From positions 1 through 53,953 of IMG/VR virus record IMGVR_UViG_3300005077_000028: a stretch of DNA of 53,953 bases; one strand, written 5' to 3'. The translations under genes were made by a program, and so were the position numbers. The notes under the pieces are model-generated. The model ran no database searches, was not told where the DNA came from, and was given only the letters and a program-made list of their open reading frames with translations. This DNA is from a virus. Its lineage: Duplodnaviria > Caudoviricetes. This document shows positions 1,818 through 47,530 of this stretch, piece after piece; the first letter of the stretch is position 1, and each line of letters opens with the position of its first letter.

Positions 1818-1822
1818 TTAAA

Positions 1823-3642: not shown

Positions 3643-3661
3643 GTAACAAATAACACTTCAT

Positions 3662-3699: not shown

Positions 3700-3761
3700 C
3701 TAAATATTTAAAAAGTAAAAATTAGTGTTATAATATAATAAAAAATGGAGAAAATCTATAT

Positions 3762-3899
3762 ATGTCTAATACTATTGATAAAATGACTCAAATTGTAGAA
3801 TTTATTAATGATCAAGCAAAGAATGCTCATGTAAATACTTTAATTTGTGGAGTTTCAGGAGGAATAGATTCTGCTGTACCTATTTGTAAAATTAAATAA
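3762..3899 (+). pseudogene. nadE: NAD synthetase remnant (45 aa; not in ORF track)
   Basis: MSNTIDKMTQIVEFINDQAKNAHVNTLICGVSGGIDSAVPICKIK: the SGGIDS PP-loop is followed after only 8 residues by a stop. RBS present; first gene of the pncA-pncB cluster. Confidence 0.75.
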
Positions 3900-3911
3900 A
3901 GGAGAAAAAAA

Positions 3912-4472: not shown

Positions 4473-4593
4473 TTATTATGTCATATGATCAATTAAAATG
4501 TAATAATTTTAGAAAATTAATTGATCATAATAATACTACTATGTACAAAATGTTTACAAGAAGTAGTTGATATTTTAAAAGGAAAATTAAAAA

Positions 4594-6750: not shown

Positions 6751-7140
6751 ATGAATATTGGAATTGATATACACGGTGTAATTGATAAAGATCCAGAGAA
6801 ATGGAAACTGGCAATGAAAATGTATAAACATTATGGGATTAATGTTTATATTATTTCAGGTCCATCTGTTGAGCAATGTATAGATGAATTAGAAAAGTTA
6901 GGGTTTTATCTTTTTGATGATTATCAAAGAATATATTCTATTATAGATACATTAGAAGAAATGAATGATCCTGACCGTTATCTAGATGAGAATGGGCATA
7001 TATGGACTAAAAAAGAAACTTGGGATTCAATTAAAGGTTTACTTTGTTATCAAAATAATATAAAATTTATGTATGATGATACTTTAGATTATAAAAAATA
7101 TATGCCTGAAAAAACTGTATTTATATATATGGGAGACTAA
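6751..7140 (+). CDS. HAD-fold phosphatase-like protein
   Basis: IGIDIHGVI motif I variant, IISG, and MYDD motif IV. Confidence 0.65.
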   Translation: MNIGIDIHGVIDKDPEKWKLAMKMYKHYGINVYIISGPSVEQCIDELEKLGFYLFDDYQRIYSIIDTLEEMNDPDRYLDENGHIWTKKETWDSIKGLLCYQNNIKFMYDDTLDYKKYMPEKTVFIYMGD

Positions 7141-8948: not shown

Positions 8949-10049
8949 TTGAAAGGTAATATATTAATGTTTATTAGTGAAAATAAAAATTGGAAAACAT
9001 TATCTTCAGAATCTTTTAATTATATTTTCAATAAAATAAACGGTTTTACTGCAATATGGGGAAAAACAAAAGAAGAAAACCCAAAATATTGTGAATTTGG
9101 TCCTATTATTGCTGATATAGAAATATCAACAATTTGTTCTGGATTAGGTAAACCATGCTCTTTTTGTTATAAATCAAATACTCCAAAAGGTAAAAATATG
9201 TCTTTTGGAACATTTAAAACTATTCTAGAAAAATTACCAAAAACTCTAACACAAATTGCTTTTGGTATTGGAGATATAGATTCTAATCTAGATCTATGGA
9301 GAATTTTAGAATATTCTAGAGAACAAGGTATAATTCCTAATATTACTATTAATGGAAATATAAAAGAAGAAGAATATTATAATAAATTAGTAAATTATTG
9401 TGGAGCAGTAGCCGTAAGTCATTATGATGATGATGTATGCTTTAATGCAGTATCTATGCTTACTTCTAAAATTAATAATATTTTTCCAAATAATCTAAAA
9501 CAAGTAAATATCCATCAATTATTATCAGAAGAAACGTTTAATGAATGTATTACTTTATTACATAAAGCCAAAACTGATATTAGATTAAAAGATCTAAATG
9601 CTATTGTATTTCTATTACTTAAACCAAAAGGAAATCGTAATAAATTAAATACTATCAAATCAATAGAAAAATTTAAAATATTATATGATTTAGCTAAAGA
9701 AAATAATATTAAAATTGGATTTGATAGTTGTTCTGCTCCTTGGTTTTTAAATGCTATATCAGATGAACCTGAATTTAAAGAAATAGAACAAATGGTAGAT
9801 TGTTGTGAATCAACTCTATTCTCAATTTATATAAATGTAAATGGAGAATTTTATCCTTGTTCTTTCACCGAAAATGAACAAAATTGGAATAATGGTTTAG
9901 ATATTGTAAATTGTAATAATTTTTTAAATGATATTTGGAATAATGAAAGAACTATTAAATTTAGAAATTCTTTATTAAACCAACAAAACGATTTATCTGA
10001 TACTTATAGAGAATGCCCTACTTTTAAGGAGATTACAATAAAATGTTAA
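8949..10049 (+). CDS. radical SAM enzyme with C-terminal SPASM/twitch-like cysteines (probable start ATG 8967)
   Basis: CSGLGKPCSFCY (CX6CX2C), NITING, and C-terminal CCES...YPCSF...ECP. Confidence 0.85.
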   Translation: MKGNILMFISENKNWKTLSSESFNYIFNKINGFTAIWGKTKEENPKYCEFGPIIADIEISTICSGLGKPCSFCYKSNTPKGKNMSFGTFKTILEKLPKTLTQIAFGIGDIDSNLDLWRILEYSREQGIIPNITINGNIKEEEYYNKLVNYCGAVAVSHYDDDVCFNAVSMLTSKINNIFPNNLKQVNIHQLLSEETFNECITLLHKAKTDIRLKDLNAIVFLLLKPKGNRNKLNTIKSIEKFKILYDLAKENNIKIGFDSCSAPWFLNAISDEPEFKEIEQMVDCCESTLFSIYINVNGEFYPCSFTENEQNWNNGLDIVNCNNFLNDIWNNERTIKFRNSLLNQQNDLSDTYRECPTFKEITIKC

Positions 10050-31929: not shown

Positions 31930-32427
31930 ATGAAAATAGGTTTATATATAGGAAGATTTCAAGGAATAACTGAAGTGCATAAATATATATTTGATTTAAT
32001 GTCATTTAAATATGATACATCTTATATATGTATTATTGATGGAAAAAAGACATCAAATGATAAAAAATTAAATCCATTTACACTGTCTATTAGATTACGA
32101 TTGATTAATAAAGTTTTAAATTATAATAATATAGTAATAATGTCTAATAGTGGGTATATTCCTGATATAATAAAGCCATTTGAAGATAATGAGATAGATT
32201 TTTATTGCGGTGAAGATAGGATAGAAAGTTATAAAAAACAACAAAAATATTTAAAAACCAAGTTAAATTTTATAAATATTAATAAGTTGAATAAATTTAA
32301 AAGGAATGATATATCTGCTACAATGCTTAGAGAAGCATTAAATACTGGTGATAAAACTAGATATATTAGATTATGTCCTATAGAATTATGGGATGATTTT
32401 GAAAATTTAAGAAAAGAAATCATATAA
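31930..32427 (+). CDS. HIGH-superfamily cytidylyl/adenylyltransferase
   Basis: YIGRFQGITEVH, NPF...R, GEDR..Y, ISATMLREAL. Confidence 0.85.
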   Translation: MKIGLYIGRFQGITEVHKYIFDLMSFKYDTSYICIIDGKKTSNDKKLNPFTLSIRLRLINKVLNYNNIVIMSNSGYIPDIIKPFEDNEIDFYCGEDRIESYKKQQKYLKTKLNFININKLNKFKRNDISATMLREALNTGDKTRYIRLCPIELWDDFENLRKEII

Positions 32428-33448: not shown

Positions 33449-33574
33449 TATTTTCAACTACTTTAAATAATTTAATTTTTTATTAAAATATAGAAAATAG
33501 CTAAGTACTTAATTTTATTTGATTTTCTGCTAATTTAATTAAATTTGTTTTATTTTTAAATAATTTGAAAAATA

Positions 33575-33604
33575 GTTTACACTTTAGGTTGATTATGGTA
33601 TAAT
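33575..33604 (+). promoter_or_regulatory. early promoter
   Basis: GTTTAC-N18-TATAAT with TG extension. Confidence 0.55.
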
Positions 33605-33630
33605 ATATTTAAATAAAGGAAAGGGAACAA

Positions 33631-33765
33631 ATGAAAATCTACATGTTGAAGAATAAAGAAACTGGTAGATTATATAATTGTGGATTTAATTATCCCTATT
33701 GGGAAGATAATTTTGCAAAAGTAATGAAACAAAATTTGGTAGAAATTGTTGAGGTGAAGGTTTAA
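33631..33765 (+). CDS. 44-aa hypothetical protein
   Basis: ATG after AAGGAAAGGG, directly behind a promoter. Confidence 0.5.
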   Translation: MKIYMLKNKETGRLYNCGFNYPYWEDNFAKVMKQNLVEIVEVKV

Positions 33766-33822
33766 AATTATTAAATTGTCTAGTAATTGTAAAGATTACT
33801 AATCATTAAAAAAGGTATAATA

Positions 33823-34008
33823 ATGCATTTTACTATACGGTGTCCTCAATGTGGCCGAGAGTTTGAACTTGACCTTGACGAAGTAGAGGTTGAGTTCGAA
33901 GGTGGTACTATACACTTTACTGGATCTTACAGCTGGCGAGCATTAAGTTGTGAGTGCTGATTTAGGCAAGTACAAGAATATGACACTTTTCCAAGTAGGT
34001 ATCGTTAA
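33823..34008 (+). pseudogene. small zinc-ribbon protein with in-frame TGA at 33958
   Basis: MHFTIRCPQCG...LSCEC*FRQVQEY. Confidence 0.55.
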
Positions 34009-34066
34009 ATATTATTAATAAAGCAATTTTATTAATTTTTTTTAAAAATAATTAAGAAGATTTAAA

Positions 34067-34357
34067 ATATTTAATTTTAAAGAAATCGTCGAAAAAATTG
34101 GTATTGAAAATATTAAATTTATTATTCCTTATAGTATTCCTTATAGTTGTTTATTTGAAAAAGATGTATTATGTATTAGTAAAATCGATGAATCTAGATA
34201 TAAAGTTTTTGAAGGATATAAAGTTACTCTTAAACCTATAAATGAAAAATTTAGACCTAAAACATTTTACTAAAGTGATCTTTTTCAATTAATTAAAGAG
34301 AGTCCTAGTAAATTTATAGTTATTAATGATATTGAACAAATTATTGAAGATATTTAA
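34067..34357 (+). pseudogene. decayed ORF (ATA start, in-frame TAA at 34271)
   Basis: IFNFKEIVEKIGIENIKFIIP...TFY*SDLFQLI...EDI* in one frame. Confidence 0.5.
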
Positions 34358-34368
34358 AATCTATTTTT

Positions 34369-34396
34369 AAAAACGCCACAATTTGTGGCGTTTTTT
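34369..34396. terminator. bidirectional terminator
   Basis: AAAAACGCCACA-att-TGTGGCGTTTTTT between convergent genes. Confidence 0.85.
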
Positions 34397-35276
34397 ATTT
34401 TGAATAATCATATAACCATTGTAAGAATATATTATTAGATTTAAATTCTTTGTTATAATATACAGAATGAATTAGTGTACTCATTTCTTTAATTAACATG
34501 TTACATTTTCTATCATATTCATCGGTAAAATCTTCAAATATATTTATATCTATTTTAGGTGTATATCCTGGAATAAAATTTTTACTTATCATATTAGAAA
34601 CTAGATTGAAATGCTTTTCATATAAATGTAAACTATTTGAAGTATGATTATATATTCCCATTTCTAATTTAGGGTATGTTTCTTTTAATTCTAATAACAT
34701 CATTTGATGGATAATATTAAAAAATACATAATCAGTAGGGATTCCAAAAATAATATCAGAAGATCTCATATATATAGAAAAGTTTAATTTATTATCTCTA
34801 ATGTGGAAAATTCCATATAGGGTGCATGGAAAATCTTTTACATTATTGAATTGGTGTTCTATTCCATTGAAGTGTAGAATTGCTTGTCTAGAATCTTTAT
34901 CATTTATTAGAGATTCTTTTGCCCATCTCCATTGAGTATAATTATTATTTTCATGAAGTCTATAGAAAATTAAGTGTCCATAATTAGAATTAATTTTACC
35001 ATCAATTGCTAATTTATTCCATAATGAAGCATGTTTACCTATATAATCAGTAGTTCTATCTCCAGCAAAATACCAAATTAATTCTTTTGCGATATATTCT
35101 ATTTGTGAAGATCTTATAGGATTTAAATATAAATTAACATTTGGGTTTTTAATAGTAAATGAATAATTCATTATTTCTTTAATTTTCATATTCCTAGGAG
35201 AAGTAATATATTCAGGGTAATAAAATATATCAAACAATAATTTTTTATATGCTTCTGTGAAAGTTTTATATATCAT
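34395..35276 (-). CDS. thymidylate-synthase-fold enzyme, predicted dCMP hydroxymethylase/hydroxylase (gp42-like)
   Basis: NSNYG, DSRQA, DFPCT, MRSSDIIFGIPTD (Asp at the pyrimidine specificity position), SLHLYEKH. Confidence 0.8.
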   Translation of the reverse strand: MIYKTFTEAYKKLLFDIFYYPEYITSPRNMKIKEIMNYSFTIKNPNVNLYLNPIRSSQIEYIAKELIWYFAGDRTTDYIGKHASLWNKLAIDGKINSNYGHLIFYRLHENNNYTQWRWAKESLINDKDSRQAILHFNGIEHQFNNVKDFPCTLYGIFHIRDNKLNFSIYMRSSDIIFGIPTDYVFFNIIHQMMLLELKETYPKLEMGIYNHTSNSLHLYEKHFNLVSNMISKNFIPGYTPKIDINIFEDFTDEYDRKCNMLIKEMSTLIHSVYYNKEFKSNNIFLQWLYDYSK

Positions 35277-35776
35277 TTATCCTCCTTATATTGTTCTTTT
35301 AATACATTACAATCAGAATAGAATTTATCTAAAGCAGTTTTATTATTTATTCTATCATATTCATATTTATATACTACTCTTTTAATCTTGGCCGCAATAA
35401 TTGCTTTAGAACAATTCCAGCATGGGTGGTATGTACAATATAATGTACCACCCTCAATTGGTAATCCTTTTCTGGCTGCCCATATTAAATTATTAATTTC
35501 TGAATGAATTTCATATTTATCACTGAAATCTGCATGTATTTTTCTTAATTCAGAATCATGATCTTTTAAATCTTCAATATTTAACCATTTTTTTATAGTA
35601 AGGGTTTTTCTAATAAATTCATCACAATTAATATACCCTTGTGGGGTTCCATTATATCCAGATACTATTATTCTATTATCTATTACAATACATGAACCTA
35701 CTTTATAACTTTGACAGTTAGATAATTTACCAAAATCTTCAACAAAATTTATAAAAACTTTATCAAATTTATTCAT
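35273..35776 (-). CDS. dCMP deaminase
   Basis: VGS.IV...GYNGTP, HSEIN, PCWNC. Confidence 0.9.
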   Translation of the reverse strand: MNKFDKVFINFVEDFGKLSNCQSYKVGSCIVIDNRIIVSGYNGTPQGYINCDEFIRKTLTIKKWLNIEDLKDHDSELRKIHADFSDKYEIHSEINNLIWAARKGLPIEGGTLYCTYHPCWNCSKAIIAAKIKRVVYKYEYDRINNKTALDKFYSDCNVLKEQYKEDK

Positions 35777-36344
35777 ATATAACTCCATCTAAATTATACC
35801 AAAAGTCACTATTACCTAAATATTTAATTTTAGGGTTATTTACTCCACGATTCCAAGGTCTATTAGGCATAAATACTTCAATATCATTATTTACTAAATC
35901 TTCAGCTGTTTCAATATGATCTTCTATAAAATGAGTAATATCATATTTTTTACATAATTCTGATTTAGTATTAGTACCAAATTCATTACTATTATTTACA
36001 CATTTTATTACAAAAGGAGTATTTTGTAAATATTTACTTAACCAAATTTTAGTTTCATCTATAACGTTTTTAGTTCTAGAAGTTATAAAAATTAAAGTAT
36101 TATTTTGACCATATTTAGTTAAAAATTCAATAGCTCCATCATAAGGATATAAAGAATTCCACCAAATAATAGTTCGTCGTACTAATTCTTGATGATCTTC
36201 TTTAGATTTACACCAATTAAATATAGAATAATATTCTTTAATATCGTCTAATGTTTTTACTTTATGATATTTATCATAATATAGACGAATATATTGTTCT
36301 ATAAAATTTACAACACACCCGTCTAAATCAAACCCAAGTTTCAT
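35769..36344 (-). CDS. HAD 5'(3')-deoxyribonucleotidase-like
   Basis: GFDLDG, ITSR, K, FIED, RPWN. Confidence 0.85.
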   Translation of the reverse strand: MKLGFDLDGCVVNFIEQYIRLYYDKYHKVKTLDDIKEYYSIFNWCKSKEDHQELVRRTIIWWNSLYPYDGAIEFLTKYGQNNTLIFITSRTKNVIDETKIWLSKYLQNTPFVIKCVNNSNEFGTNTKSELCKKYDITHFIEDHIETAEDLVNNDIEVFMPNRPWNRGVNNPKIKYLGNSDFWYNLDGVIYE

Positions 36345-36885
36345 TACTATTCCTTTTTAAAAATTCTATAATTTTATTATGTATAATATTAATAGACATT
36401 TTATTACAATTTAATAATAGTTTTTTATTAATATTAGATTGTTTTGTTGAATTTATAAATAAATCTATTTCTTTTTGTTTTTTTTCTAGTTTTATTGAAA
36501 AAGATAAACCATCATCTCTTTTAATTAAATTTTCAGGTTCATCATATAGTGTTATTAAAAATATAGAATTCCAAAAATTTGATTTTATATATTTTTTTTC
36601 AATATCATAAATATATTCTCCATTATAATTTCTATATATTGGTGAATATACATTTTCACCAATATGACTTCGATCAAAAATTAAATAAAAATTATCATTT
36701 AATTTTTTCATTATTTTAAACATTTCATTATATTGAATTTTTGAATATTCATATATATTTTCTGTTAAAATATTACTATATTTAATAATATGAGTAATTT
36801 TATTAATATTTCCAAAATATGTTCTTAATAAATTTATTTGTGTTCCTTTTCCAACATTATCTGGACCTTCAAATATAATAATCAT
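36328..36885 (-). CDS. dNMP (thymidylate-like) kinase
   Basis: MIIIFEGPDNVGKGT, FDRSHIGE.VY..YR, RDDG. Confidence 0.85.
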   Translation of the reverse strand: MIIIFEGPDNVGKGTQINLLRTYFGNINKITHIIKYSNILTENIYEYSKIQYNEMFKIMKKLNDNFYLIFDRSHIGENVYSPIYRNYNGEYIYDIEKKYIKSNFWNSIFLITLYDEPENLIKRDDGLSFSIKLEKKQKEIDLFINSTKQSNINKKLLLNCNKMSINIIHNKIIEFLKRNSNETWV

Positions 36886-36886
36886 T

Positions 36887-38413
36887 TTATATAATTCCTT
36901 TTTTATAATCATTATAACATTTTTCAAATATATTGTAATATATTTGTTGATTTGTTTTATTATGATAATGTAATGGAATCATACTTAAAAATAAACTAGC
37001 AGTTAATATTGTTAAAAATTTTAATTCTTTTTTTGTAAAAGTAGATTCCAATTTATTTTTGAATATTTTTTTAATATTTTCAGTTCCATTATTGAATATT
37101 GTATAATCTTCTATAGAATTAATTATATATAATTCAGAATTAATGAAGTCATAATCATATAATATACTATGTATTAATTTAGCGATATCATAGTAATAAT
37201 TACCATATATAATACCATTTGGATCAATCATATATGGTTTATCATTTTGTAAGTCATATATTATATTTGATAAACAAAAATCACCATGCATTAATGTATT
37301 TTTTAATTTAAATTTTTTAATTTCATTTTTAAAATCTTCAAAAAAATTTTTTAATAGAGGTGTTTTTTCTAAATTTTCACATCTAATTTTTGTTTTATTT
37401 AATATCGTATCAAAAAAATTTATTTCTTTTGATTTATATTTTTTCATTTTATCAATTAAAGAAAATAAAGATTTAAAAATTATTTCCCATGTTTCATTTG
37501 ATCTATCTAGATATAAGTAAACATCTTTTAATGTTGGAAAAGGTAATTGTTCAATTGAATAGTAATTATTATTAAAAAAATTTGAATTTATTATTCTCGG
37601 AGTATATAATTTAATATCATATGGTATAGTTTTAAACCAATTATATTCATTGATTATTTTATTAACATTTTTAGAATATTTATAAGTTATATTATCTTTA
37701 AAAATGATTTTATTAAATATTCTATGAAAAGTTATATTTTTATTTTTTAAGTAATCGTTTAATGTACCATAATCTTTAATATTAATATAGTTTGTATCAT
37801 AAGTAAATAAATCAAAATTATTCATAATAGTAGATAATTGAAATTCTGATGATATTTTTTCATTATTTTTAAATTGTTTTTCTAATTCTAGTTTTAATTT
37901 ATTAGTATTTTTAAAATAATATACACCAGATACCGCTAAATTTGTATTTGGTTTTGTTAATGGTTTATCATAAAATTTTTCTACATATTTATTATTATCA
38001 TTAATTTTTACCATACACCAACGAGAATAATCATTTACTTCTTGTACAGAAATAAAATTATTATCATATGATACATTTTTTATATTAGCAATTATATCAC
38101 CTAATATTATTAGTACAGAGTCATTAATATCATTTTTTATTACTTCATATATTGCACCACTTAAACCATTTAAATTTTCTTGAACTTTAAAAATAATATT
38201 TACTTTAAAATTAAAAATTTTTATAATATTTTTAATTTCATTTTGTTGATGATTTATTACAATATAAATTTTATTACAACCTTGAGATTCTAGTTCTTTA
38301 ATATTATAATAAATAATAGGTTTTTCATTCAATGGTAATATACATTTAGGATAATATTTTCCTAATTCTTTAAATCTTAAACCTTTTCCTGCTGCAGGAA
38401 TAATACCAATCAT
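36887..38413 (-). CDS. sugar-phosphate nucleotidyltransferase fused to an aminoglycoside/choline-kinase-like domain
   Basis: IIPAAGKGLRF...PK, Q..LNGL, GD, SGVY, EFQL, DYGT; C-terminal E..WF, HGDFCLSNI, IDP, YDIAK. Confidence 0.88.
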   Translation of the reverse strand: MIGIIPAAGKGLRFKELGKYYPKCILPLNEKPIIYYNIKELESQGCNKIYIVINHQQNEIKNIIKIFNFKVNIIFKVQENLNGLSGAIYEVIKNDINDSVLIILGDIIANIKNVSYDNNFISVQEVNDYSRWCMVKINDNNKYVEKFYDKPLTKPNTNLAVSGVYYFKNTNKLKLELEKQFKNNEKISSEFQLSTIMNNFDLFTYDTNYINIKDYGTLNDYLKNKNITFHRIFNKIIFKDNITYKYSKNVNKIINEYNWFKTIPYDIKLYTPRIINSNFFNNNYYSIEQLPFPTLKDVYLYLDRSNETWEIIFKSLFSLIDKMKKYKSKEINFFDTILNKTKIRCENLEKTPLLKNFFEDFKNEIKKFKLKNTLMHGDFCLSNIIYDLQNDKPYMIDPNGIIYGNYYYDIAKLIHSILYDYDFINSELYIINSIEDYTIFNNGTENIKKIFKNKLESTFTKKELKFLTILTASLFLSMIPLHYHNKTNQQIYYNIFEKCYNDYKKGII

Positions 38414-38772
38414 ATATAATTCTCCTTTATACATATATTATAATCAGTATTATTTATGAACTGTTTTATGGTTAAATTACGATCATCAATATAAAAAACA
38501 TCTTCTCCCCATGGCTTACCCATTATTAATTCATGATATTTAATATTATACCTGTTTAACCACTCTTCTAATATTGGTCTGGTATATTTATTAATCAATG
38601 TTAAATTACCTTTAAATGTTCTCATATTTCTTGATGTAAATAATATAATTTTATTTCCTTTAAAATATAAACTATTAATTTTATTAATAATAATTATATT
38701 TGGTGTAGAATTAATATAATCATTATTATAAGTTTTACAAATTGTATTATCTATATCAATTATAAAAGTCAT
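38410..38772 (-). CDS. small HAD sugar phosphatase (capsule-biosynthesis phosphatase type)
   Basis: DIDNTIC, FTSR.M, WL, MGKP, YIDDR. Confidence 0.85.
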   Translation of the reverse strand: MTFIIDIDNTICKTYNNDYINSTPNIIIINKINSLYFKGNKIILFTSRNMRTFKGNLTLINKYTRPILEEWLNRYNIKYHELIMGKPWGEDVFYIDDRNLTIKQFINNTDYNICIKENYI

Positions 38773-39902
38773 TTAATCATTTCTTTAAATTTATTTATAA
38801 CAATATTATTTAAATAAGAACCATCTAAATATTCATCTTTAATTAATTTCATTAAATATATTAATAATTTATTATATTCATTTTTATTGTTTTCTAATAA
38901 TTCTATTTTTTTAAATAATTCTTTTGGAGATTTTATTCTTAAAAAATCTGGAATTGGTAAATGTTTTTGATCATCATAATATGGATGTAAAAATGGAATA
39001 ATACCATAATACAACATTTCCCAAAATTTAGCAGTTACCCAACCCTTTTCAATTGGTATTATTAATGTATATTTTACATCATATAAAAGTTTTTGTAAAT
39101 TATTAAATTTTTTAGGACCTTTAAAACGTGAATCTTTTAACCATTCATCTGACCATTTACCATATATTTCAATATCATCTATATTATCTAAAATATATTC
39201 TTTAAGTATTGATCCTCTTGATAATCCACCATTTCCCCCTTCATTTAAAACAATCATCATTTTTTTAGTTTTATTATTTAATTTTGGTTTACTTTTATTA
39301 ATTAAAAATATTTTTTCAATATTAGAATATAATACATCAATACTTTTAAATTTAAAAGTTTTTTGATTATCATATGATATAATAGATTTATATTTATAAG
39401 ATGTATTATATTGTGATAATGAAAATTGTGGAGAATTAATAAAATCTCTACCAGGTTTAATATAACGAGGATCTGGTGATATTAACATATATTTAATTTT
39501 TGATTCATTTAAATAATATATAATTGGTCCAACATACTTTTCAAACATTTGTAAAACTTTAGCATTTTCATTGCTATTAATTTTTAAAATTTTATTGGGT
39601 ATATTTACTTGACTAATTGGACCTGAAAATAATATTCCCCCATCAATTTTTACATTTTTTAACTGATCATATACCCATGTTAAATTATTATTTTTTCTAA
39701 TATCAAAATTTTCCCATATATTAACTATATTAGGTATATTTAAATTATAATCTGTTTTTCCTATAATATAAAATGTATCTTGGGTATTATATTTTGCTAA
39801 ATTTAAATAAAAATTTGAAGGTTCATTATCCCCACCAATTGCTCCCCATTTTTTATCATTAAATAATAATGATCTACCAAATTTACCAATTACAATATTC
39901 AT
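38769..39902 (-). CDS. DNA beta-glucosyltransferase-like GT-B glycosyltransferase
   Basis: Collinear similarity to T4 BGT: DPRY, SQ, IEK, R..ILKEY...IEIYG, FKG, TLII, VTAKFWE, YDDQKH, KELFKKIELL. Confidence 0.75.
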   Translation of the reverse strand: MNIVIGKFGRSLLFNDKKWGAIGGDNEPSNFYLNLAKYNTQDTFYIIGKTDYNLNIPNIVNIWENFDIRKNNNLTWVYDQLKNVKIDGGILFSGPISQVNIPNKILKINSNENAKVLQMFEKYVGPIIYYLNESKIKYMLISPDPRYIKPGRDFINSPQFSLSQYNTSYKYKSIISYDNQKTFKFKSIDVLYSNIEKIFLINKSKPKLNNKTKKMMIVLNEGGNGGLSRGSILKEYILDNIDDIEIYGKWSDEWLKDSRFKGPKKFNNLQKLLYDVKYTLIIPIEKGWVTAKFWEMLYYGIIPFLHPYYDDQKHLPIPDFLRIKSPKELFKKIELLENNKNEYNKLLIYLMKLIKDEYLDGSYLNNIVINKFKEMIK

Positions 39903-40636
39903 TATTTTCCTTTTTCATTTAATAATATATTAACAACATCTTTAAGTAAATTTCTAACTTGATATTCTATACATTGAGACTCTGTTATTTGTACTACTAA
40001 TAACTCTATATCGTTAACATCATAATATTTATTTGATAAAATCATAGCTTTATAAAAATTTAATTGAAGTTCATATTTAGATAACTTACTATCATCTAAA
40101 TGTGTAATAGGAGGTAAACCTAATCCACCTTTAGATTCATCTAATCTACCTTCTGATGTTTTCCAATCTATTAAAAATAATTTCCCTGTAGATTTTTCTT
40201 TAGCCACACAATCAATCATCCCTGCTAAATCTCTATCAGGCCACACAATCTTCTTCTCTAATTCCAATACTTCAAAATTTTCATTAAATTGGTTTACAAT
40301 ATAATCATATGCAACTAAAAAAAATTCTTGTTCTCTTTTATTTTTAGGAATTGGGGCTTTTTCATTTTTTAATAAACACTCTAAAAAATAATGAACATTT
40401 GTTCCAAAATTAGAAGCATCATTACCTACATTTTCCCAAATTTGTTTAATTTCATTAGCAGAATATAATAAATATTTACCTTTATATTCACAAAATTTAG
40501 ACATTTTTTCCATGTCAAATTTAGGAAAATATTTGTTTAATATTTTTGTAACTGAGTTAGTAATCTTTTTTTCATCATAATAATAAACGTGATATTGTTC
40601 ATTAAATTTTATTAAACTTTCATCAATAGTTTTCAT
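39902..40636 (-). CDS. PD-(D/E)xK exonuclease
   Basis: H.Y, SVT, GTNVH...E, LEKKI, AGMIDC, IDWKTS, YELQLNFY. Confidence 0.85.
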   Translation of the reverse strand: MKTIDESLIKFNEQYHVYYYDEKKITNSVTKILNKYFPKFDMEKMSKFCEYKGKYLLYSANEIKQIWENVGNDASNFGTNVHYFLECLLKNEKAPIPKNKREQEFFLVAYDYIVNQFNENFEVLELEKKIVWPDRDLAGMIDCVAKEKSTGKLFLIDWKTSEGRLDESKGGLGLPPITHLDDSKLSKYELQLNFYKAMILSNKYYDVNDIELLVVQITESQCIEYQVRNLLKDVVNILLNEKGK

Positions 40637-41009
40637 ATGTACTAATCCACATATCTAAAAATATTAACGAATACCCAATTAAAGTTAAAATACATTTTTC
40701 ATATTCCTTATATAAATAAGGAATAATTGGGATCTTTTTATATGATTGTTTTATATTAAAAAACTTAAATATTTTATTTTCATATTCTTCTATAAACATA
40801 TCATCAATTAATTTTAAATCTTCTTTTTTATTTGTTCCTATTTTTCTAAGATTCCCAGAAATTTCTATTTTATTTGATAGTATATTAACATTAGATTCAC
40901 TAATATAAAAACAATCAATATATATAAAATCTTTCGGAGGGTTATATGTTAATTGGATTTCCTTTTTGTTAGAATCTATAATAACCCAAACATTTTTTAT
41001 TAATGCCAT
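40623..41009 (-). CDS. hypothetical protein
   Basis: ORF within operon. Confidence 0.55.
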   Translation of the reverse strand: MALIKNVWVIIDSNKKEIQLTYNPPKDFIYIDCFYISESNVNILSNKIEISGNLRKIGTNKKEDLKLIDDMFIEEYENKIFKFFNIKQSYKKIPIIPYLYKEYEKCILTLIGYSLIFLDMWISTYENY

Positions 41010-41011
41010 TT

Positions 41012-41440
41012 TTATTCATCTTCTAATTGCATTATTAATCTTGAAGCCCAAGTGGGGTCATCTGAATTTAATTTTACTTCTTCAGTAAAATCTTCAAAAT
41101 CATGTCCTACTAATTTATAAGGTTGTTTTGCTTCTATATCTACAAAACAATGTCGTAATTCATGTCTAATTAAACGTTCACGATCTTTAGGAGTTTTATC
41201 TGTTATATTCCAAATATTTTCATCAATAAATAAAATATAATCATAATCATCTGGAGATAAAAACTTTTCTAAACTTGATGTCATTTTAATATATGCTAAT
41301 ACAACTCTACCTTTAGATTTCTTAGCTTTTTCATAAAATAAAATTTTAAATTTTGCATTAACTAAATTAGAAAAATATTGTTTTACAACTTGATCTTTTA
41401 ATTCATATACTGAATTTGGAACATCTTTAAATTTTGGCAT
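41012..41440 (-). CDS. putative phage metallopeptidase
   Basis: LIRHELRH...GHDFEDF. Confidence 0.75.
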   Translation of the reverse strand: MPKFKDVPNSVYELKDQVVKQYFSNLVNAKFKILFYEKAKKSKGRVVLAYIKMTSSLEKFLSPDDYDYILFIDENIWNITDKTPKDRERLIRHELRHCFVDIEAKQPYKLVGHDFEDFTEEVKLNSDDPTWASRLIMQLEDE

Positions 41441-41447
41441 CTTTTTA

Positions 41448-41963
41448 TTACTCCTTTATATTTATAATATTATTTTTCCATATTATTTGTAAATCTCTAG
41501 ATAAAAACATAAAAGGCATATACCTTAATGTATATTTTAAATTTTTATCAGAATAAAAAGGATTAAAATTTTCAAAATCTATTATTCTACCATTTCTTCC
41601 AAAAATAAAAATATATTTATAATCTGAATATTTTTTAATATGTTTAAACCGATTTATAATTTTTTCAAAATAAGATTTTTTTATTCTTAAATTAGGATAC
41701 ATAAATAATGTTTTTATCTCTAAAATATCATTATTAAATAATAAATCTTCATATTTTTTATCACAAAATGAAAAATGTTCATTATATATTTGCACTAAAC
41801 AATGTTCTAATAATTCTCCATTTAATCTACTTTCTTCTGTACCATATGGCTTAGACATTATTTCATTGAATATATTATTATAATCTGTTAACTGTTCAGT
41901 GTAAATATATTTGTCTTTAGGAATTAAATCAAATGGAAGTGGATCCAAATCCGCCAGCACCAC
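41448..41963 (-). CDS. hypothetical protein (possible PD-(D/E)xK-like)
   Basis: GELLE...EDLL...LEIKT weak pattern. Confidence 0.45.
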   Translation of the reverse strand: MVLADLDPLPFDLIPKDKYIYTEQLTDYNNIFNEIMSKPYGTEESRLNGELLEHCLVQIYNEHFSFCDKKYEDLLFNNDILEIKTLFMYPNLRIKKSYFEKIINRFKHIKKYSDYKYIFIFGRNGRIIDFENFNPFYSDKNLKYTLRYMPFMFLSRDLQIIWKNNIINIKE

Positions 41964-42378
41964 GAGTAGATTTTTCTAAATATAAATCTTTAAAATCTAC
42001 TTCTACTGGATTTAAATAATTCATTTCAATAAGAATAAATTGAATAATTTTCATTCCTGGAAATATTTCAACATTTTTATCAGATGTATTAATTAAATTA
42101 ATATGTACTTCTCCTTGGTATTCTTGATCCACTACACATGCACCAATCATTAACCCTAATTTAGACGAAATCCCAGATTTATTAAATGCAATTAAAGCAT
42201 ACCCTTCTGGGATATTAAAATGAATTCCACTAGGTATCAAAATATTTTCATGAGGTTTTAATACCTTAACTTTTTTATCATTGAAATCATTAGGAATAAA
42301 TAAATCTATTCCAGCATCAGTATTATGTGCTCTATTAGGACTTTTTACATCTCTAACCTTACTAAAACTAAACTCCAT
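41929..42378 (-). CDS. dut: trimeric dUTPase
   Basis: AGIDL, KSG, VVDQEYQGE, IIQF, RGAGGFGST. Confidence 0.93.
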   Translation of the reverse strand: MEFSFSKVRDVKSPNRAHNTDAGIDLFIPNDFNDKKVKVLKPHENILIPSGIHFNIPEGYALIAFNKSGISSKLGLMIGACVVDQEYQGEVHINLINTSDKNVEIFPGMKIIQFILIEMNYLNPVEVDFKDLYLEKSTRGAGGFGSTSI

Positions 42379-42397
42379 ATTTACTAATTAATCCTCC

Positions 42398-42727
42398 TTA
42401 ATCTATATATTTTATAATCATCTTATCATTTTCTACTTCATCCATTAATTCACTTGAATCCCAGGGAGCATCCATAAAAATAAATAAATCTTTTTCATAA
42501 TTTATTTTATTCATAAATTTATTTTCATCTTTAAAGTTTTCATTAAACTCTTCTTCATCCATTCCATAATTATCTAAAACGTATGATTTATTAACTGGTT
42601 TTCCGATAAACGAATTGACTAATAATTTATAATCTTTATCTGTATTATATTTTTCTTTCATTCCAAATAAAACACAAATAAATGATGATGAACTACTATT
42701 ACTTACAAACCCCATTCTTAATTTCAT
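42398..42727 (-). CDS. MKIRxGFVSNSSS-motif protein
   Basis: N-terminus MKLRMGFVSNSSSSSFIC. Confidence 0.8.
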   Translation of the reverse strand: MKLRMGFVSNSSSSSFICVLFGMKEKYNTDKDYKLLVNSFIGKPVNKSYVLDNYGMDEEEFNENFKDENKFMNKINYEKDLFIFMDAPWDSSELMDEVENDKMIIKYID

Positions 42728-42729
42728 TT

Positions 42730-43029
42730 TTAATCTTCTTCTGGTAAATATTTATCTTCATCATATATATCTTCATATAATAAATAATCTTCAGAGCATA
42801 AATCACATAATTGTTCCCATCCTTGTAATTCATGAATCCAAGATTTATCTGGTGCTTTAAACCATGTATCATGTAAAATTCTACATATATTATTATCTTT
42901 ATTTTCTATTAGAATTTTAGATAATTCTAATTCTTTGTAATTAAATTTATTAATTAATTCTAATAAATTTTTCTTATATTTATTAACAATATTCCACCAT
43001 TCTTCTTTTGTAGTTGGGTATGAATACAT
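42730..43029 (-). CDS. hypothetical protein
   Basis: W..APD..WIH...GW..LCDLCSE. Confidence 0.7.
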   Translation of the reverse strand: MYSYPTTKEEWWNIVNKYKKNLLELINKFNYKELELSKILIENKDNNICRILHDTWFKAPDKSWIHELQGWEQLCDLCSEDYLLYEDIYDEDKYLPEED

Positions 43030-43037
43030 TTATTCTC

Positions 43038-43958
43038 CTAAAAAAAAGTATTAAATGCTAATTGTTTATGTAGATCTAATATATATGTTTTATTTAAAGG
43101 TTCTAATAGCATTTCTATTTTACGAGTAAAGTATTTTTCTATCATAATATTTCTATCTGGGATAATTCCATTTTCTTCAAATTCCTTTGGCCATTCAACA
43201 TAACATATAGAATTCATCCCAAATTGATTATCTTTTAAATATATTACTTTTGCTTTTTCATCACCTTCTAACCATTCATATTGATTTTTTAGATTGAATG
43301 TTTCTAATAATAATCTATAATTAGCTACACCTTTGATATGCCATGGGATTCCTAAAGTTTTTCCAGCTGTATTTTTTAAATCTGTTCTTAATTCTGTATC
43401 TGATTTAAAATAACTTTTTAATGATTTTCTTTCTGAGTTATTTCCTTTAGGTGGTAATGTTATATTAGCAGAAATGTCTTCTAATTCACATATTAACATT
43501 TCTTTTTTACATTTTTCTATTTTATCTACAATTTCATCTTCAGTAGATTTTCTCATTATCATATTTAATATATTATCTAAATATTTTCTAATTATTACGG
43601 GAGTATCAGATCTTATAATTTCAATACCTTTTACTTTTACTTTATCTGTATCTATACCTTCTTCATTTATTGCCCAATATGCATATCTCTTTTTCTTAAT
43701 AAATAATGCGGTTTTTGCAACTAACTCATGTTTTAATCCTATTTTAAAATCTTTTACATTAGAATTATATTGCTCTAATTGTGTTTCATTAAATGTTCTT
43801 TCATTTACATAATCTTGAATCTTATTAGCAATATTTAAAATTAATTTTAATTTTAAATTTTCAGATAATTCTACCCACTTAGGATTAACAGTATCTAAAT
43901 ACTTTCCTATTGCTAAAAATATAGAATCAGTATCTATATATGTAACAAAATCAATCAT
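43038..43958 (-). CDS. family B DNA polymerase, C-terminal subunit (gp43B-like)
   Basis: YIDTDS, KKKRYA, KVKGIEIIRSDTP. Confidence 0.92.
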   Translation of the reverse strand: MIDFVTYIDTDSIFLAIGKYLDTVNPKWVELSENLKLKLILNIANKIQDYVNERTFNETQLEQYNSNVKDFKIGLKHELVAKTALFIKKKRYAYWAINEEGIDTDKVKVKGIEIIRSDTPVIIRKYLDNILNMIMRKSTEDEIVDKIEKCKKEMLICELEDISANITLPPKGNNSERKSLKSYFKSDTELRTDLKNTAGKTLGIPWHIKGVANYRLLLETFNLKNQYEWLEGDEKAKVIYLKDNQFGMNSICYVEWPKEFEENGIIPDRNIMIEKYFTRKIEMLLEPLNKTYILDLHKQLAFNTFF

Positions 43959-45733
43959 TTAGACACCTTTAATAAAGAATCAATAATTTTTGATACTTGT
44001 TTATTTTTGATTTTATCATTCATAAAATCGTTTGCATAATCTTGGGCTCTTAATATAGTATTAACCCCACATGTAGTAATAGCTAATGAAATATCTGGAT
44101 TAAAATATCTAGAATAAGGTACTGATGTTGCCCCATAAGTACTATTAAGTAAAGCTTTTAGAGCTGTTTGATATGAATTTAAAATACTTATTTTTATTTT
44201 TATTATATCTATTTTCTTTTTATCTTTTATTGATTCTAAAGAGTGTTTTAGTTTAAACATTTTTTGTTTTGTTTCTTTACGTTTCATAAAATATGTTTTT
44301 TGAATATCTGCAATTACACCTTTTCTATCATTAACAAAAATAGTACCACATGGGGCAATTGAGAATTTTTTCATTTTTACTGCATTATTAAATTTTAATA
44401 ATAATTCATCTTTAAAATGTTTTACATTTCCAGATTTACTTTTAAACATAAAATCTGGGAATTCTTTTAATTGTGTATATTTAACTATTTGTTCTTCAGT
44501 TTTATCTGTTATTCTTCCATAATATGTTTCAACACTCATATTTAAAGTAATTATATGTGAAGGATATGAAGATGTAATATCTAAATCTATTACATATTCA
44601 TAAAATCCTTTTAAAGGATCTTTTACAATTGCCCCGGTAAACGGGTGTGATGATTGAAATTCATCATGATATGGAGCACATAAATTATTTCTTCTAAAAT
44701 ATGTTAATAAGGCTCCTTCAATCATTTTAGTTTGTGATTCAGTAAATACTAATGGGACTTTAGTTAATAAAGAAACAGCTAACATATTATGTTGAATAAA
44801 TCCACGTTTTTTCTCAATTTGATCTACTCTTCTTACGTCAATTATATTATATTCAACATATTTTTGATAATTTTGTTGATATAAATTTCTTAATCCTATT
44901 GCCCCAGATCCATATTCAGAATAATCTAATTTACCTTCTCCTAATTCTTCTTTAGCAACAGTATCTAACCTAAAATTTTCTAAATTTTTATATGCATATC
45001 GCTTATATGTAGGTAAATAATCTATAATAGAAATTCCAGGAATATCTAATTTATAATCACCTGTAGTTGATTCCCATTGTCTTAATAAATTAATAGGAGA
45101 TAATTGTTCAATTAATTTATCATTACCAGATAACAACCTTGTTCTTTCTATAATATAAGGAAAGTCAAAGTTATATATATTCCACCCAGTAAATATATCC
45201 GGAGGATTTTCATGAATAAAATGAATCATATTTTTTAATAATTCAAAATCATTTGCACATTTGAAATATACAGTTTTATCATCAGGTGTAAAATCATGTA
45301 AACCAAATACATATACTTTATCATTAAAATTATTATGAATTGATATTACTGTAATAGGATATTTAGGATTCTTATAAGATGGAAATTCCTCAGCATCAAT
45401 TTCAATATCTATAGTATAAATTAATAATCTAGGATGTTCTAATTCATCATCTGGAATTCCATAATATCGTTCTGTTAAATATTGAATTTGAGGAGCAACA
45501 TTATTTTCATAAATTCCAGATTTTTTAAATTTTTCATATTTACGTTTATCCCAATATGAATTAAAAGTTTTTTTTGTTGCTTTATTACCATCAATAGTAT
45601 CTACATTACCATCTAAATCTCGAATATATAAATAAGGAGTCCAATCATATATATCATATAATCGTTCACCTTTTACTGTATGCCATAAATGCATTTTAGA
45701 TTTTTTTTGGTCATAATATATATTTCTAAACAA
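43955..45733 (-). CDS. family B DNA polymerase, N-terminal subunit (gp43A-like)
   Basis: ExoI DIE, GWN..FD.PY, YNIID, DITSSYP, KALLNSTYG. Confidence 0.93.
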   Translation of the reverse strand: MFRNIYYDQKKSKMHLWHTVKGERLYDIYDWTPYLYIRDLDGNVDTIDGNKATKKTFNSYWDKRKYEKFKKSGIYENNVAPQIQYLTERYYGIPDDELEHPRLLIYTIDIEIDAEEFPSYKNPKYPITVISIHNNFNDKVYVFGLHDFTPDDKTVYFKCANDFELLKNMIHFIHENPPDIFTGWNIYNFDFPYIIERTRLLSGNDKLIEQLSPINLLRQWESTTGDYKLDIPGISIIDYLPTYKRYAYKNLENFRLDTVAKEELGEGKLDYSEYGSGAIGLRNLYQQNYQKYVEYNIIDVRRVDQIEKKRGFIQHNMLAVSLLTKVPLVFTESQTKMIEGALLTYFRRNNLCAPYHDEFQSSHPFTGAIVKDPLKGFYEYVIDLDITSSYPSHIITLNMSVETYYGRITDKTEEQIVKYTQLKEFPDFMFKSKSGNVKHFKDELLLKFNNAVKMKKFSIAPCGTIFVNDRKGVIADIQKTYFMKRKETKQKMFKLKHSLESIKDKKKIDIIKIKISILNSYQTALKALLNSTYGATSVPYSRYFNPDISLAITTCGVNTILRAQDYANDFMNDKIKNKQVSKIIDSLLKVSK

Positions 45734-45775
45734 TATAATTCACCTCACATATTATATTATATTATATATAAATAT

Positions 45776-46135
45776 TTAATTAATATATATTTCTCGATCT
45801 ATAATTTTTTTAATATTTTCATCTGATAATTTTCTTTGTAAAGATCTTAAATATGCAAATTGAGCTTCTTCTCCCCATAATACATTTTCATTATCTACAT
45901 AATATGAAGAATATACTCTAGTATTTGAATATTTATTATTTAATATAATTGCTATATTAGCAGCTAAAGCTGGTGGCGTAGATAAATCAAAACAAATTTG
46001 TAATTCACTTTCAGTAGGCATAATCAATAAAAACGGAGCAATTACCATACCCGTTTCACACTGTAAATGATTTTCATTAAAAACTTTACACTCAATTAAA
46101 AACTCTTTAATTTCATCTAAAGTAGGAATTTTCAT
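45776..46135 (-). CDS. hypothetical protein
   Basis: Coupled ORF. Confidence 0.65.
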   Translation of the reverse strand: MKIPTLDEIKEFLIECKVFNENHLQCETGMVIAPFLLIMPTESELQICFDLSTPPALAANIAIILNNKYSNTRVYSSYYVDNENVLWGEEAQFAYLRSLQRKLSDENIKKIIDREIYIN

Positions 46136-46515
46136 TTTAATAACCCACGTTCAGGATTAACTAATGACTCCTTTTGATTAAACCCAATTAAATTCCCATA
46201 CCCTTCAAATGATAAAATAGAATCCGTTACAAATTGCATAATCCTAGGATGTTTTGTAATATTTTCAATAGATTCTAACATTGTATTTAATTTAATTTTT
46301 AAATGATAATCTTTATTATCTTTAATTAATTCTTGAATTAATTCTATAGAAGATCTAATCCATACTTTAATATTATCAACTGACATAAATTGCATTTCAT
46401 CATTAAGTATAGTCATTAAAAGAGCAAATGCTTCTCGAGTTGAAATTGGCTGACCTATTGACATACCATTAATTTTTACTCTAACATCTTTAACACTTTT
46501 TGCTGTCATTTCCAT
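46132..46515 (-). CDS. hypothetical protein
   Basis: Coupled ORF. Confidence 0.65.
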   Translation of the reverse strand: MEMTAKSVKDVRVKINGMSIGQPISTREAFALLMTILNDEMQFMSVDNIKVWIRSSIELIQELIKDNKDYHLKIKLNTMLESIENITKHPRIMQFVTDSILSFEGYGNLIGFNQKESLVNPERGLLK

Positions 46516-46865
46516 ATTCCTTTCTCATATTTTTCTTGATAAATATCTGCAAATAATGATTCTAGATCAGTATTTCCTTTTTCTTCATTTAAATTTTCAG
46601 GATACCCTAACATATATATATTATCATCTGGTAATCTATTAATAAATTTCTCGATCAATTCTTTCAAACATTGTGAACATATATATACAATATCACCTTT
46701 TACCAAAGATGTATATTTATTATAACATTCTTGACAAACGGTTGTCCCATCATTCAATAATATCATATTTCTAGCAGAATTATTATTAATATGTTTACAA
46801 ATTGCTCGGATTTTTAAATAATTTTGATGTATCGAACACCTTTCTAATATAAGTTTATCTTTCAT
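46506..46865 (-). CDS. Cys/His-rich hypothetical protein
   Basis: CSIH, CKH, CQEC, CSQC. Confidence 0.65.
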   Translation of the reverse strand: MKDKLILERCSIHQNYLKIRAICKHINNNSARNMILLNDGTTVCQECYNKYTSLVKGDIVYICSQCLKELIEKFINRLPDDNIYMLGYPENLNEEKGNTDLESLFADIYQEKYEKGIWK

Positions 46866-46908
46866 CTTTTTACTCCTTTTATAAATATATATATAAAATG
46901 GGATTTAT

Positions 46909-47004
46909 ATAAAATTTAAAATATTTCTTGAAAATAATAACAAAAAATTGGATGATGATAATTTTAATAAAATAAAATCACATACTAGAAATTTACATAC
47001 ATAA
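46909..47004 (+). pseudogene. remnant of a tagged gene (ATA start)
   Basis: (I)KFKIFLENN...; downstream of TATAAATA at 46880-46887. Confidence 0.45.
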
Positions 47005-47035
47005 AAATATGTGATATATCTAAATAGGAGTTTGA

Positions 47036-47530
47036 ATGAGTGAAATAAATTTAACTAATATGTCAAATATATTTGAATTAGAAAATTCTATTAAAGAAGA
47101 TACTAAAGATCTAGTAAAATCTATTAATAATTTACCAGATAATATAAATGAAGAATCATCTGAGGATATAATAAGAGAAAATATAGATAATGCTAGAGAG
47201 TTATTTGATTTAGTTATGCAACAAATACAGCATGGAAATTTAACTGCGGGTTTAGCTCAAAGTGCTGCAACAATTATTAATGCAATAACTAATGCAGCAA
47301 ATTCTATTCAAACCGTTCAATTAAATGATTTTAATATGGAATTAAAAGAAAGATCATTATCTATTAAAGAAGAAGAATTAAAATTAAAAATTAAAGATGC
47401 TAAAAACCCACAAAATCAAACAAATATTCTAGTTGTTGATACTCGAGAAAAAGTTCTACAAGCATTAAAAGATGTTATTAAATTAGAAACAAAACCACTA
47501 GAATCTGAGGAAAATATAATTGAAATTTAA
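47036..47530 (+). CDS. probable terminase small subunit (gp16-like)
   Basis: Helical IRENI...A..I...L pattern, QTNILVVDTREKVLQAL; size and context fit. Confidence 0.55.
   Translation: MSEINLTNMSNIFELENSIKEDTKDLVKSINNLPDNINEESSEDIIRENIDNARELFDLVMQQIQHGNLTAGLAQSAATIINAITNAANSIQTVQLNDFNMELKERSLSIKEEELKLKIKDAKNPQNQTNILVVDTREKVLQALKDVIKLETKPLESEENIIEI

Follow-up and report, generated by a model that had tools for sequence, protein, structure and literature searches.

Two schemes of cytosine glycosylation that start from a homolog of thymidylate synthase (TS) have been characterised in phages. Phage T4 combines 5-hydroxymethylcytosine (5hmC) with host UDP-glucose; RB69, DLP3 and HY126 combine a flavin-made 5-hydroxycytosine (5hoC) with phage-made UDP-arabinose. 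According to the available part of PMC13326640, a SIS isomerase of the latter phages provides arabinose-5-phosphate, the kinase domain of AfhE converts it to the 1,5-bisphosphate, the HAD enzyme AfhF takes off the 5-phosphate, and the nucleotidyltransferase domain of AfhE finally yields UDP-arabinofuranose. Whether a phage escapes particular restriction, CRISPR and type IV systems depends on DNA hypermodification. Here we analyse a seven-gene operon at positions 34395-39902 (minus strand) of the IMG/VR virus record IMGVR_UViG_3300005077_000028. The window is the entire linear record of 53,953 bp. We consider it probable (about 0.7) that the operon is a self-contained pathway for DNA with glycosylated 5hmC in a deeply divergent T4-like phage. 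An initial annotation had proposed a cytosine hypermodification operon with a kinase/phosphatase/nucleotidyltransferase route to the sugar donor and a BGT-like transferase; this core proposal is supported by a fold search, by profile homology to enzymes of the RB69/DLP3 type and by synteny in 80 related viral loci.

All seven coupled open reading frames (ORFs) of the initial annotation are present at 34395-39902 on the minus strand. Families were assigned by matches to Pfam, PHROGs and NCBIfam profiles, and the genes are listed here in the order of transcription, together with one peripheral gene of the nucleotide pool:

38769..39902, minus strand: GT-B glycosyltransferase (GT), 377 aa, predicted DNA 5hmC glycosyltransferase (fold match to T4 BGT)
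38410..38772, minus strand: small HAD phosphatase, AfhF-like, 120 aa (phrog_1238, E 3.5e-22; TIGR01689, E 4e-32, under cut-off)
36887..38413 (ORF to 38434), minus strand: NTP_transferase/APH-kinase fusion, AfhE-like, 508 aa (PF00483, E 5e-20; PF01636, E 2.6e-6)
36328..36885 (ORF to 36927), minus strand: Tmk-like P-loop kinase, candidate modified-dCMP kinase (phrog_761, E 4e-12)
35769..36344, minus strand: NT5C-type HAD, 5'-deoxynucleotidase-like, 191 aa (PF06941, E 6.6e-7, 29.8 bits at a cut-off of 24.8)
35273..35788, minus strand: dCMP deaminase, 171 aa (PF00383, E 2.9e-18; phrog_174, E 1e-40)
34395..35276, minus strand: TS-fold enzyme, predicted dCMP hydroxymethylase, 293 aa (PF00303, E 9e-23)
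41929..42378, minus strand: trimeric dUTPase-family enzyme, 2 kb upstream of the operon (PF00692, E 1.5e-19)

The base was predicted from the TS homolog. As far as the available part of PMC13326640 describes, the exchange N177D (ThyA numbering) indicates dCMP as substrate, an acidic residue at position 143 admits water and leads to a hydroxymethyl or other non-methyl product rather than a methyl group, and D169N is the mark of flavin-dependent 5-hydroxy-dCMP synthases, namely those of RB69 and DLP3 and all nine additional enzymes tested there. The window enzyme was aligned with E. coli ThyA, T4 gp42, the homolog of Acinetobacter phage Lazarus and ORF044 of Enterococcus phage 9183 (alignment A1). 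The motif RSSDIIFGIPTD, which the initial annotation had read as a sign of a dCMP-specific enzyme, was found, and its final Asp pairs in A1 with Asn177 of E. coli ThyA and with an Asp of T4 gp42 (window GIPTD, E. coli GLPFN, T4 GFRND). The catalytic Cys is present and aligns with ThyA C146 both in A1 and in a 64-row alignment. Position 143 is Asp in the window (VKDFPC) as in T4 (SDFMC) and Leu in E. coli. Position 169 is Asp (RSSD) in the window enzyme, which thus lacks the D169N exchange, and Asn in the Lazarus control (RSQN), which showed the expected residues E143, N169 and D177. Over the nine positions E58, W80, Y94, D143, C146, T147, R166, D169 and D177 the window enzyme is the same as T4 gp42 (9/9).

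Database comparisons of the TS homolog gave a similar picture. A phmmer search of the PDB ranked the CMP hydroxymethylase MilA (7.2e-20) and T4 dCMP hydroxymethylase (8.1e-20) before the thymidylate synthases (4.4e-16 or weaker), and the thymidylate synthase equivalogs of NCBIfam reached 19-70 bits, compared with cut-offs of 108-427. The enzyme belongs to a long-form subfamily of about 290 aa (547 matches) with a C-terminal extension of about 50 aa; the complete nine-position signature of gp42 occurs in 120/120 subfamily members among the matches listed, and Asn169 in none of these 120. A large TS subfamily that is as yet uncharacterised is thus classified cleanly by the residue rules for positions 143, 169 and 177. 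Because the gp42 pattern is retained without D169N, 5hmC is predicted over 5hoC; the favoured assignment, made from the residues at these positions, is a putative 5hm-dCMP synthase and 5hmC as the base. Of the two bases that the initial annotation had offered, 5hmC or 5hoC, the former is favoured over the latter.

The glycosyltransferase was placed by its fold. A search of Pfam with the GT sequence returned only a weak match to the C-terminal region of Glyco_transf_10 (E 7.7e-4), and none of its 396 homologs carries a name. An AlphaFold2 model, calculated from a 38-sequence alignment, reached a pLDDT of 93.8 and a pTM of 0.90. When this model was compared with the PDB by Foldseek, entries of T4 BGT occupied ranks 1-5 and 8 (best 1qkj, E 2.6e-10, TMq 0.60); the other matches after T4 BGT were BshA and further GT-B enzymes, including WbnH and fucosyltransferases. 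The neighbours of the protein in the Atlas are viral clusters only, among them clusters of PF09198, the T4 BGT family (score 0.96; structural TM 0.66-0.68). Three glycosyltransferases of Lazarus, the counterparts of the DLP3 arabinosyltransferases, gave no BLASTP match with E <= 0.01 (best 0.014, gp075). On the basis of the model, the GT is predicted to be a DNA 5hmC glycosyltransferase and a distant structural relative of T4 BGT. Transfer of the T4 BGT catalytic residues onto the GT was tried with hhalign and rejected, as the alignment covers the second half only and sets a T4 strand on a predicted helix.

The donor route is represented by the fusion protein and the small HAD. In the fusion, PF00483 covers residues 10-231 and PF01636 residues 359-422, and the model (pLDDT 91.9) likewise falls into two domains. 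RmlA and UDP-glucose pyrophosphorylases (GalU-like) are the matches of the N-terminal domain and dominate the Foldseek search with the whole model, in which the kinase domain was not placed. For the kinase domain by itself, phmmer found no meaningful match in the PDB (best E 0.92), and NCBIfam returned only sub-threshold matches to generic sugar-1-phosphate nucleotidyltransferases. The family profile of the fusion (A3) aligned with Lazarus gp078, the AfhE homolog, over 396 columns and both domains (hhalign 99.6%, E 3e-24), and the fusion shares 32% identity with ORF047 of phage 9183. The small HAD carries the DxDxT motif as DIDNT at its N-terminus and is 39% identical to Lazarus gp077 (E 1.7e-16), 39-41% to AfhF homologs of Acinetobacter phages, 36% to ORF046 of phage 9183 and 51% to its counterpart in Pseudoalteromonas phage vB_Psh_XG4. 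The HAD match TIGR01689 is a model for a capsule-biosynthesis phosphatase.

We then asked how often these genes occur together. A scan of IMG/VR with the GT alignment revealed 351 contigs encoding a GT relative, of which 80 loci were kept. Counts were obtained by BLASTP of the locus ORFs (E < 1e-5) and are lower bounds, as many loci are cut by contig ends. The small HAD lies near the GT in 76 of the 80 loci; a TS homolog is present in 60/80 and the fusion in 42/80, a dCMP deaminase stands beside the GT in 39/80, and a dUTPase was detected in seven of the 80. Judged from this gene content, the conserved core is made up of four genes, namely the TS homolog, the GT, the small HAD and the kinase/nucleotidyltransferase, and the co-occurrence of the same genes in 80 related viral loci indicates that their arrangement in the window is not due to chance. 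From these loci 60 TS ORFs were aligned after three contig-end fragments had been dropped. The combination D143/C146/D169/D177 was found in 57 of the 60, one per locus in 57 loci, and N169 in none of them.

In the loci without the fusion its place is taken by a protein of 340-352 aa, in which the same HAD is joined to an APH-like kinase; the C-terminal part can be aligned with the window's kinase domain, and the alignment takes in the HGD...N...IDP motif (probability 55% and E 1.2e-4 by hhalign). A separate cytidylyltransferase-like gene accompanies this protein, as in the variant sugar modules L033:11271-13619 and L038:7478-9999, the latter with an NAD-dependent epimerase/dehydratase in addition. 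L021 encodes the kinase and the nucleotidyltransferase (NTP_transf_3) by separate genes and has a GT9-family gene as well. The triad of kinase, phosphatase and nucleotidyltransferase therefore persists in different architectures beside the same GT and the enzyme with the gp42 signature. The variant modules of L033 and L038 suggest, from their gene content, that different sugars may be attached to the same base.

According to the initial annotation no sugar isomerase is visible in the window, and this was confirmed with PF01380 (SIS), which gave 0 matches in the window, a contig that CheckV rates as 24% complete. The same family was absent from all five related records searched (0/5), among them G001 (205 kb) and G002 (170 kb), which are both rated as fully complete (100%), and from phages 9183, DLP6 and XG4; the isomerase of the Lazarus control was found at 20.9 bits, itself below the family cut-off. 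A BLASTP search with the arabinose-5-phosphate isomerase of Lazarus was negative in all 80 loci. As the two complete relatives, 9183 and XG4 lack the gene as well, truncation of the contig is not the sole reason for its absence. A search for a second ThyA or a ThyX found neither within the window; the initial annotation had recommended to look for such genes in the rest of the genome. The relative G001 possesses a canonical ThyA (339.6 bits) beside the gp42-like gene, as in T4.

These data bear on the sugar in different ways. Arabinose or another host-derived pentose phosphate is suggested by the relationship of the enzymes with AfhE and AfhF. Arabinose-5-phosphate is not known as a normal metabolite of Enterococcus. 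The consistent absence of an isomerase, together with the occurrence of the module in a phage of a Gram-positive host, speaks for a universal sugar phosphate as a possible substrate, and the RmlA-like N-terminal domain leaves room for glucose. We infer a non-glucose sugar; arabinose or another pentose has roughly an even chance, glucose a small one, and the remainder belongs to some other sugar.

The phage itself was classified by its structural and replication genes. The window encodes a gp23-like capsid protein (PF07068, E 2e-99), a gp20 portal, a gp21-type prohead protease, a large terminase and a split B-family DNA polymerase, and its GC content is about 24%. Among cultured phages no capsid protein exceeds about 35% identity to that of the window, and the best matches are Stenotrophomonas phage DLP6, Pelagibacter phage HTVC008M and cyanomyophages. 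On the evidence of these proteins the source is a deeply divergent T4-like phage.

The proposed pathway is built on sequence signatures, folds, homology and conserved linkage, and each catalytic step, the acceptor and the sugar are deduced from them. The TS-fold enzyme would hydroxymethylate dCMP with methylene-tetrahydrofolate to 5hm-dCMP, like T4 gp42. The Tmk-like kinase and the NDP kinase of the host would convert 5hm-dCMP to the triphosphate, which the B-family polymerase of the phage would incorporate, while the dCMP deaminase, the dUTPase and the NT5C-type nucleotidase would reshape the pyrimidine pools. In the donor branch, a sugar phosphate of the host would receive a phosphate at C1 from the kinase domain of the fusion and lose its distal phosphate to the small HAD, and the nucleotidyltransferase domain would form the NDP-sugar, by the AfhE/AfhF logic that phage HY126 demonstrates for UDP-arabinofuranose. 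Once the DNA is replicated, the BGT-like GT-B enzyme would move the sugar onto the hydroxymethyl group of 5hmC in DNA, which would be protected from host nucleases. The product may be a base undescribed so far, in which 5hmC carries, by an O-linkage, a pentose or another sugar than glucose that the phage makes itself (arabinofuranosyl- or ribofuranosyl-oxymethylcytosine, for instance), and the BGT-like GT family may mark a glycodiverse class of 5hmC hypermodifications; we put this forward tentatively, at somewhat less than even odds. If it holds, the family is a large class that extends across uncultured T4-like phages and some phages of Gram-positive hosts, each with its own donor pathway.

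Some observations weigh against glycosylated 5hmC as the product of the operon. The residue rules rest on a single paper with a limited number of tested enzymes (PMC13326640, in its available part). A phylogeny of the TS homolog had been suggested as a check in the initial annotation: in a maximum-likelihood tree the window enzyme joins the long-form group, which is separate from the T4 gp42 clade (98/99) and whose basal branching is not resolved; the same holds for the deep branches of this tree, in which Lazarus and 9183 join as long branches. The designation BGT-like holds at the level of the fold and is weak at the level of sequence: PF09198 gave no match to the GT at E <= 0.01, BLASTP aligned it with T4 b-gt over 124 aa at E 3e-4, and hhalign assigned a probability of 53%, so that the acceptor could differ. 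BLASTP of the fusion with its Lazarus homolog yielded 24% identity confined to the kinase domain, and for this reason the substrate of AfhE is not transferable to the fusion. The Tmk-like kinase matches PF02223 with E 1.1e-4, under the Pfam cut-off, although it shares 27% identity with the cluster kinase gp074 of Lazarus (E 4e-6) and 29% with ORF043 of 9183. It occurs in seven of the 80 loci and homologs of the NT5C HAD in none of them (0/80), so both genes are accessory. A dCTPase or a gp1-type dNMP kinase was not seen in the window, which covers 24% of the genome, and complete replacement of dC is thus not demonstrated; the relative L009 shows a weak MazG-like match after the cluster (E 5.8e-4, below the Pfam cut-off).

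The same evidence can be read in other ways. The base could be ordinary glucosyl-5hmC, with the operon making UDP- or dTDP-glucose from glucose-6-phosphate via glucose-1,6-bisphosphate independently of host Pgm and GalU. This would fit T4 BGT, a UDP-glucose enzyme, as the nearest solved structure of the GT, the best matches of the N-terminal fusion domain to glucose-1-phosphate thymidylyl- and uridylyltransferases, and the lack of a pentose-phosphate isomerase in the window, the 80 related loci and the two complete relatives. We regard it as unlikely: the only characterised homologs, AfhE and AfhF, use arabinose-5-phosphate (PMC13326640, available part), and the phage sugar-activation genes that accompany the GT in 76/80 loci would be needless for a ubiquitous donor such as UDP-glucose, while the epimerase/dehydratase or GT9-family enzyme added in some relatives points to unusual sugars. 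Rather less probable is a function of the sugar genes and the GT on a host surface glycan or a virion protein, with mere adjacency to the nucleotide genes. GT-B acceptors are indeed very diverse, BshA, WbnH and fucosyltransferases are among the fold matches, and the best NCBIfam model of the small HAD is the capsule-biosynthesis phosphatase; however, the fold search is led by T4 BGT, which modifies DNA, the genes show translational coupling inside a block of replication and nucleotide genes, and the GT is linked to a TS homolog with the gp42 signature in 57/80 loci of very different phages, including a Gram-positive phage.

Two further alternatives concern the base. That it is 5hoC as in RB69 and DLP3, and the operon a divergent arabinosyl-5hoC cluster, would agree with the shared gene classes (Tmk-like kinase, TS homolog, HAD, fusion and GT, as given in the available part of PMC13326640) and with the homology of HAD and fusion to the arabinosyl-5hoC enzymes. 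But Asp169 is found in the window, in 57/57 GT-linked TS homologs and in 120/120 subfamily members among the matches listed, and Asn169 in all tested 5hoC producers (PMC13326640, available part); in addition, the GT is unrelated by BLASTP to the Lazarus arabinosyltransferase homologs and no isomerase was found, and we consider such a cluster very improbable. A true thymidylate synthase or a dCMP methyltransferase, which would provide no hydroxyl acceptor, is hardly credible. Databases label the relatives thymidylate synthase and the window has no other ThyA or ThyX, but position 177 is Asp and not Asn, position 143 is Asp and not Leu, the NCBIfam equivalog scores lie far under their cut-offs, and G001 has its canonical ThyA plus a gp42-like copy. 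Taken together, we prefer a pathway for glycosylated 5hmC.

The layout of the window operon was also analysed. The dCMP deaminase contains the zinc motifs H-x-E and PCxxC, and the NT5C-type HAD a DxDG motif at its N-terminus. Junctions between the annotated ORFs overlap by 1-41 nt. Shine-Dalgarno-like sequences favour later starts for the kinase (36885 in an ATG context, compared with TTG at 36927) and for the fusion (38413), with which every junction comprises only a few nt; the database's own call for the fusion, 508 aa, agrees with the start at 38413. One further element closes the operon on its 3' side, where two gene sets converge:

34369..34395, no strand assigned: terminator-like hairpin, 12-bp stem between an A-run and a T-run, abutting the stop codon of the last gene of the operon

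Within 33500-47200 one terminator-like site was found, compared with a mean of 1.7 in shuffled sequences, and the position of the hairpin is suggestive rather than significant. A promoter scan gave 168 sites and shuffled sequences gave 154 +/- 11; in such AT-rich DNA this amounts to no signal. Upstream of the operon, a gene for a PD-(D/E)XK exonuclease (Cas4/RecB-like; 39902-40636, minus strand) overlaps the start of the GT by 1 nt. Its homologs were absent from the 80 related loci (0/80), and it probably stands outside the module.

Several other genes of the window were recorded. The B-family DNA polymerase (43038-45733, minus strand) consists of two overlapping ORFs of 592 and 306 aa, and an annotated split gp43 exists also in Lazarus. 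At the start of the contig (97-257, minus strand) there is a pair of tRNA genes, one for Arg(TCT) and one for Gly(TCC). A second, shorter gene of the cytidine/dCMP deaminase family (1190-1597, minus strand; 135 aa; PF00383, E 2e-14) is distant from the operon. A possible NAD salvage set is formed by an isochorismatase/nicotinamidase-like and a nicotinate phosphoribosyltransferase gene (3912-5853, plus strand) and a cytidylyltransferase-like gene, possibly NMN adenylyltransferase-like (31930-32427, plus strand). The latter (CTP_transf_like) was considered as a second nucleotidyltransferase of the sugar pathway and rejected, as it shows no similarity to the cytidylyltransferase-like genes of L033 and L038. 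A DEAD/ResIII helicase (7140-8906) lies between two radical SAM proteins (5979-6734 and 8949-10049, both plus strand), the latter of which has a SPASM domain.

The related loci showed some additional features. The three TS ORFs outside the 57 are second copies of 330 aa located about 7 kb from the GT (L011:14524-15516, L012:11339-12331, L028:17030-18022). They have D143/D169/N177 and group with E. coli ThyA (100/100); their residue pattern would suit a dUMP hydroxymethylase, and both pyrimidines may be modified in these phages. A homolog of C-5 cytosine DNA methylases (PF00145, E 5e-11 to 2e-20) lies downstream of the GT in four of five annotated related loci (L009:11205-12494, L021:11311-12579, L033:13706-14920, L038:11284-12555), immediately following it in three of them and separated from it by three sugar-pathway genes in L033. 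Such a gene is odd for phages predicted to swap C for 5hmC, and among the window ORFs of at least 90 aa there is none. In Stenotrophomonas phage DLP6 (L002, KU682439.2), a homolog of the fusion (6947-8638; 30% identity over 96% of the query) sits between recombination genes and an SNF2 gene. As DLP6 revealed neither a GT homolog (tblastn) nor a TS homolog, the fusion also occurs outside the module.

The closest described systems share different parts of the operon. With the gp42/BGT system of T4 it has in common the identical TS active-site signature, the best structural match of the GT, a dCMP deaminase and a location near the DNA polymerase gene. In contrast, T4 relies on host UDP-glucose and has no sugar-activation genes, whereas the window couples the fusion and the HAD to the GT; moreover, the GT is without a PF09198 match and the TS homolog is a long form of about 290 aa outside the gp42 clade. 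The clusters of RB69, DLP3 and HY126 contain a 5hodCMP synthase, AfhE, AfhF, an arabinose-5-phosphate isomerase and GT4-like arabinosyltransferases (PMC13326640, available part). They resemble the window in the logic of sugar activation, the homologous fusion and small HAD, and the Tmk-like kinase in the cluster; they differ by the diagnostic Asn169 in place of Asp169, by the SIS isomerase, which was not found in the window, and by their transferases, whose Lazarus homologs show no BLASTP similarity to the BGT-like enzyme.

Literature searches, which included the preprint text on phage 9183, found no report on the DNA chemistry of carriers of the 9183/XG4 type and no description of a cluster with a gp42-type, an AfhE/AfhF-like and a BGT-like enzyme; supplements were outside their scope, and the supplementary figures S10 and S11 of PMC13326640 might bear on variants of the pathway. 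The nearest cultured counterparts are uncharacterised modules. In Enterococcus phage 9183 (Denvervirus) the cluster starts with Tmk and the TS homolog, continues with dUTPase and HAD and ends with the fusion and the GT homolog; six of the proteins match those of the window at 29-36% identity, the dUTPase (ORF045, 32%) lies inside the cluster, and the TS homolog (ORF044) has D143/D169/D177. In XG4 the TS homolog, HAD, fusion and GT are consecutive at 100-4263 and show 26-51% identity to the window, and the TS homolog is 50% identical to T4 gp42. A syntenic uncharacterised module is also present in the Enterococcus phages TJE4 and Planchet. The module proteins of 9183 and XG4 are annotated only as hypothetical, pyrophosphorylase-like or thymidylate synthase. 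Both phages differ from the window in their unrelated hosts and phage lineages, and the GT is the last gene there and the first in the window. As the module exists in the cultured phages 9183, TJE4, Planchet and XG4, its chemistry is directly resolvable. The combination of a T4-type base, a sugar activation of the RB69 type and a BGT-like transferase is probably a scheme of cytosine glycosylation that is uncharacterised so far and common in uncultured phages.

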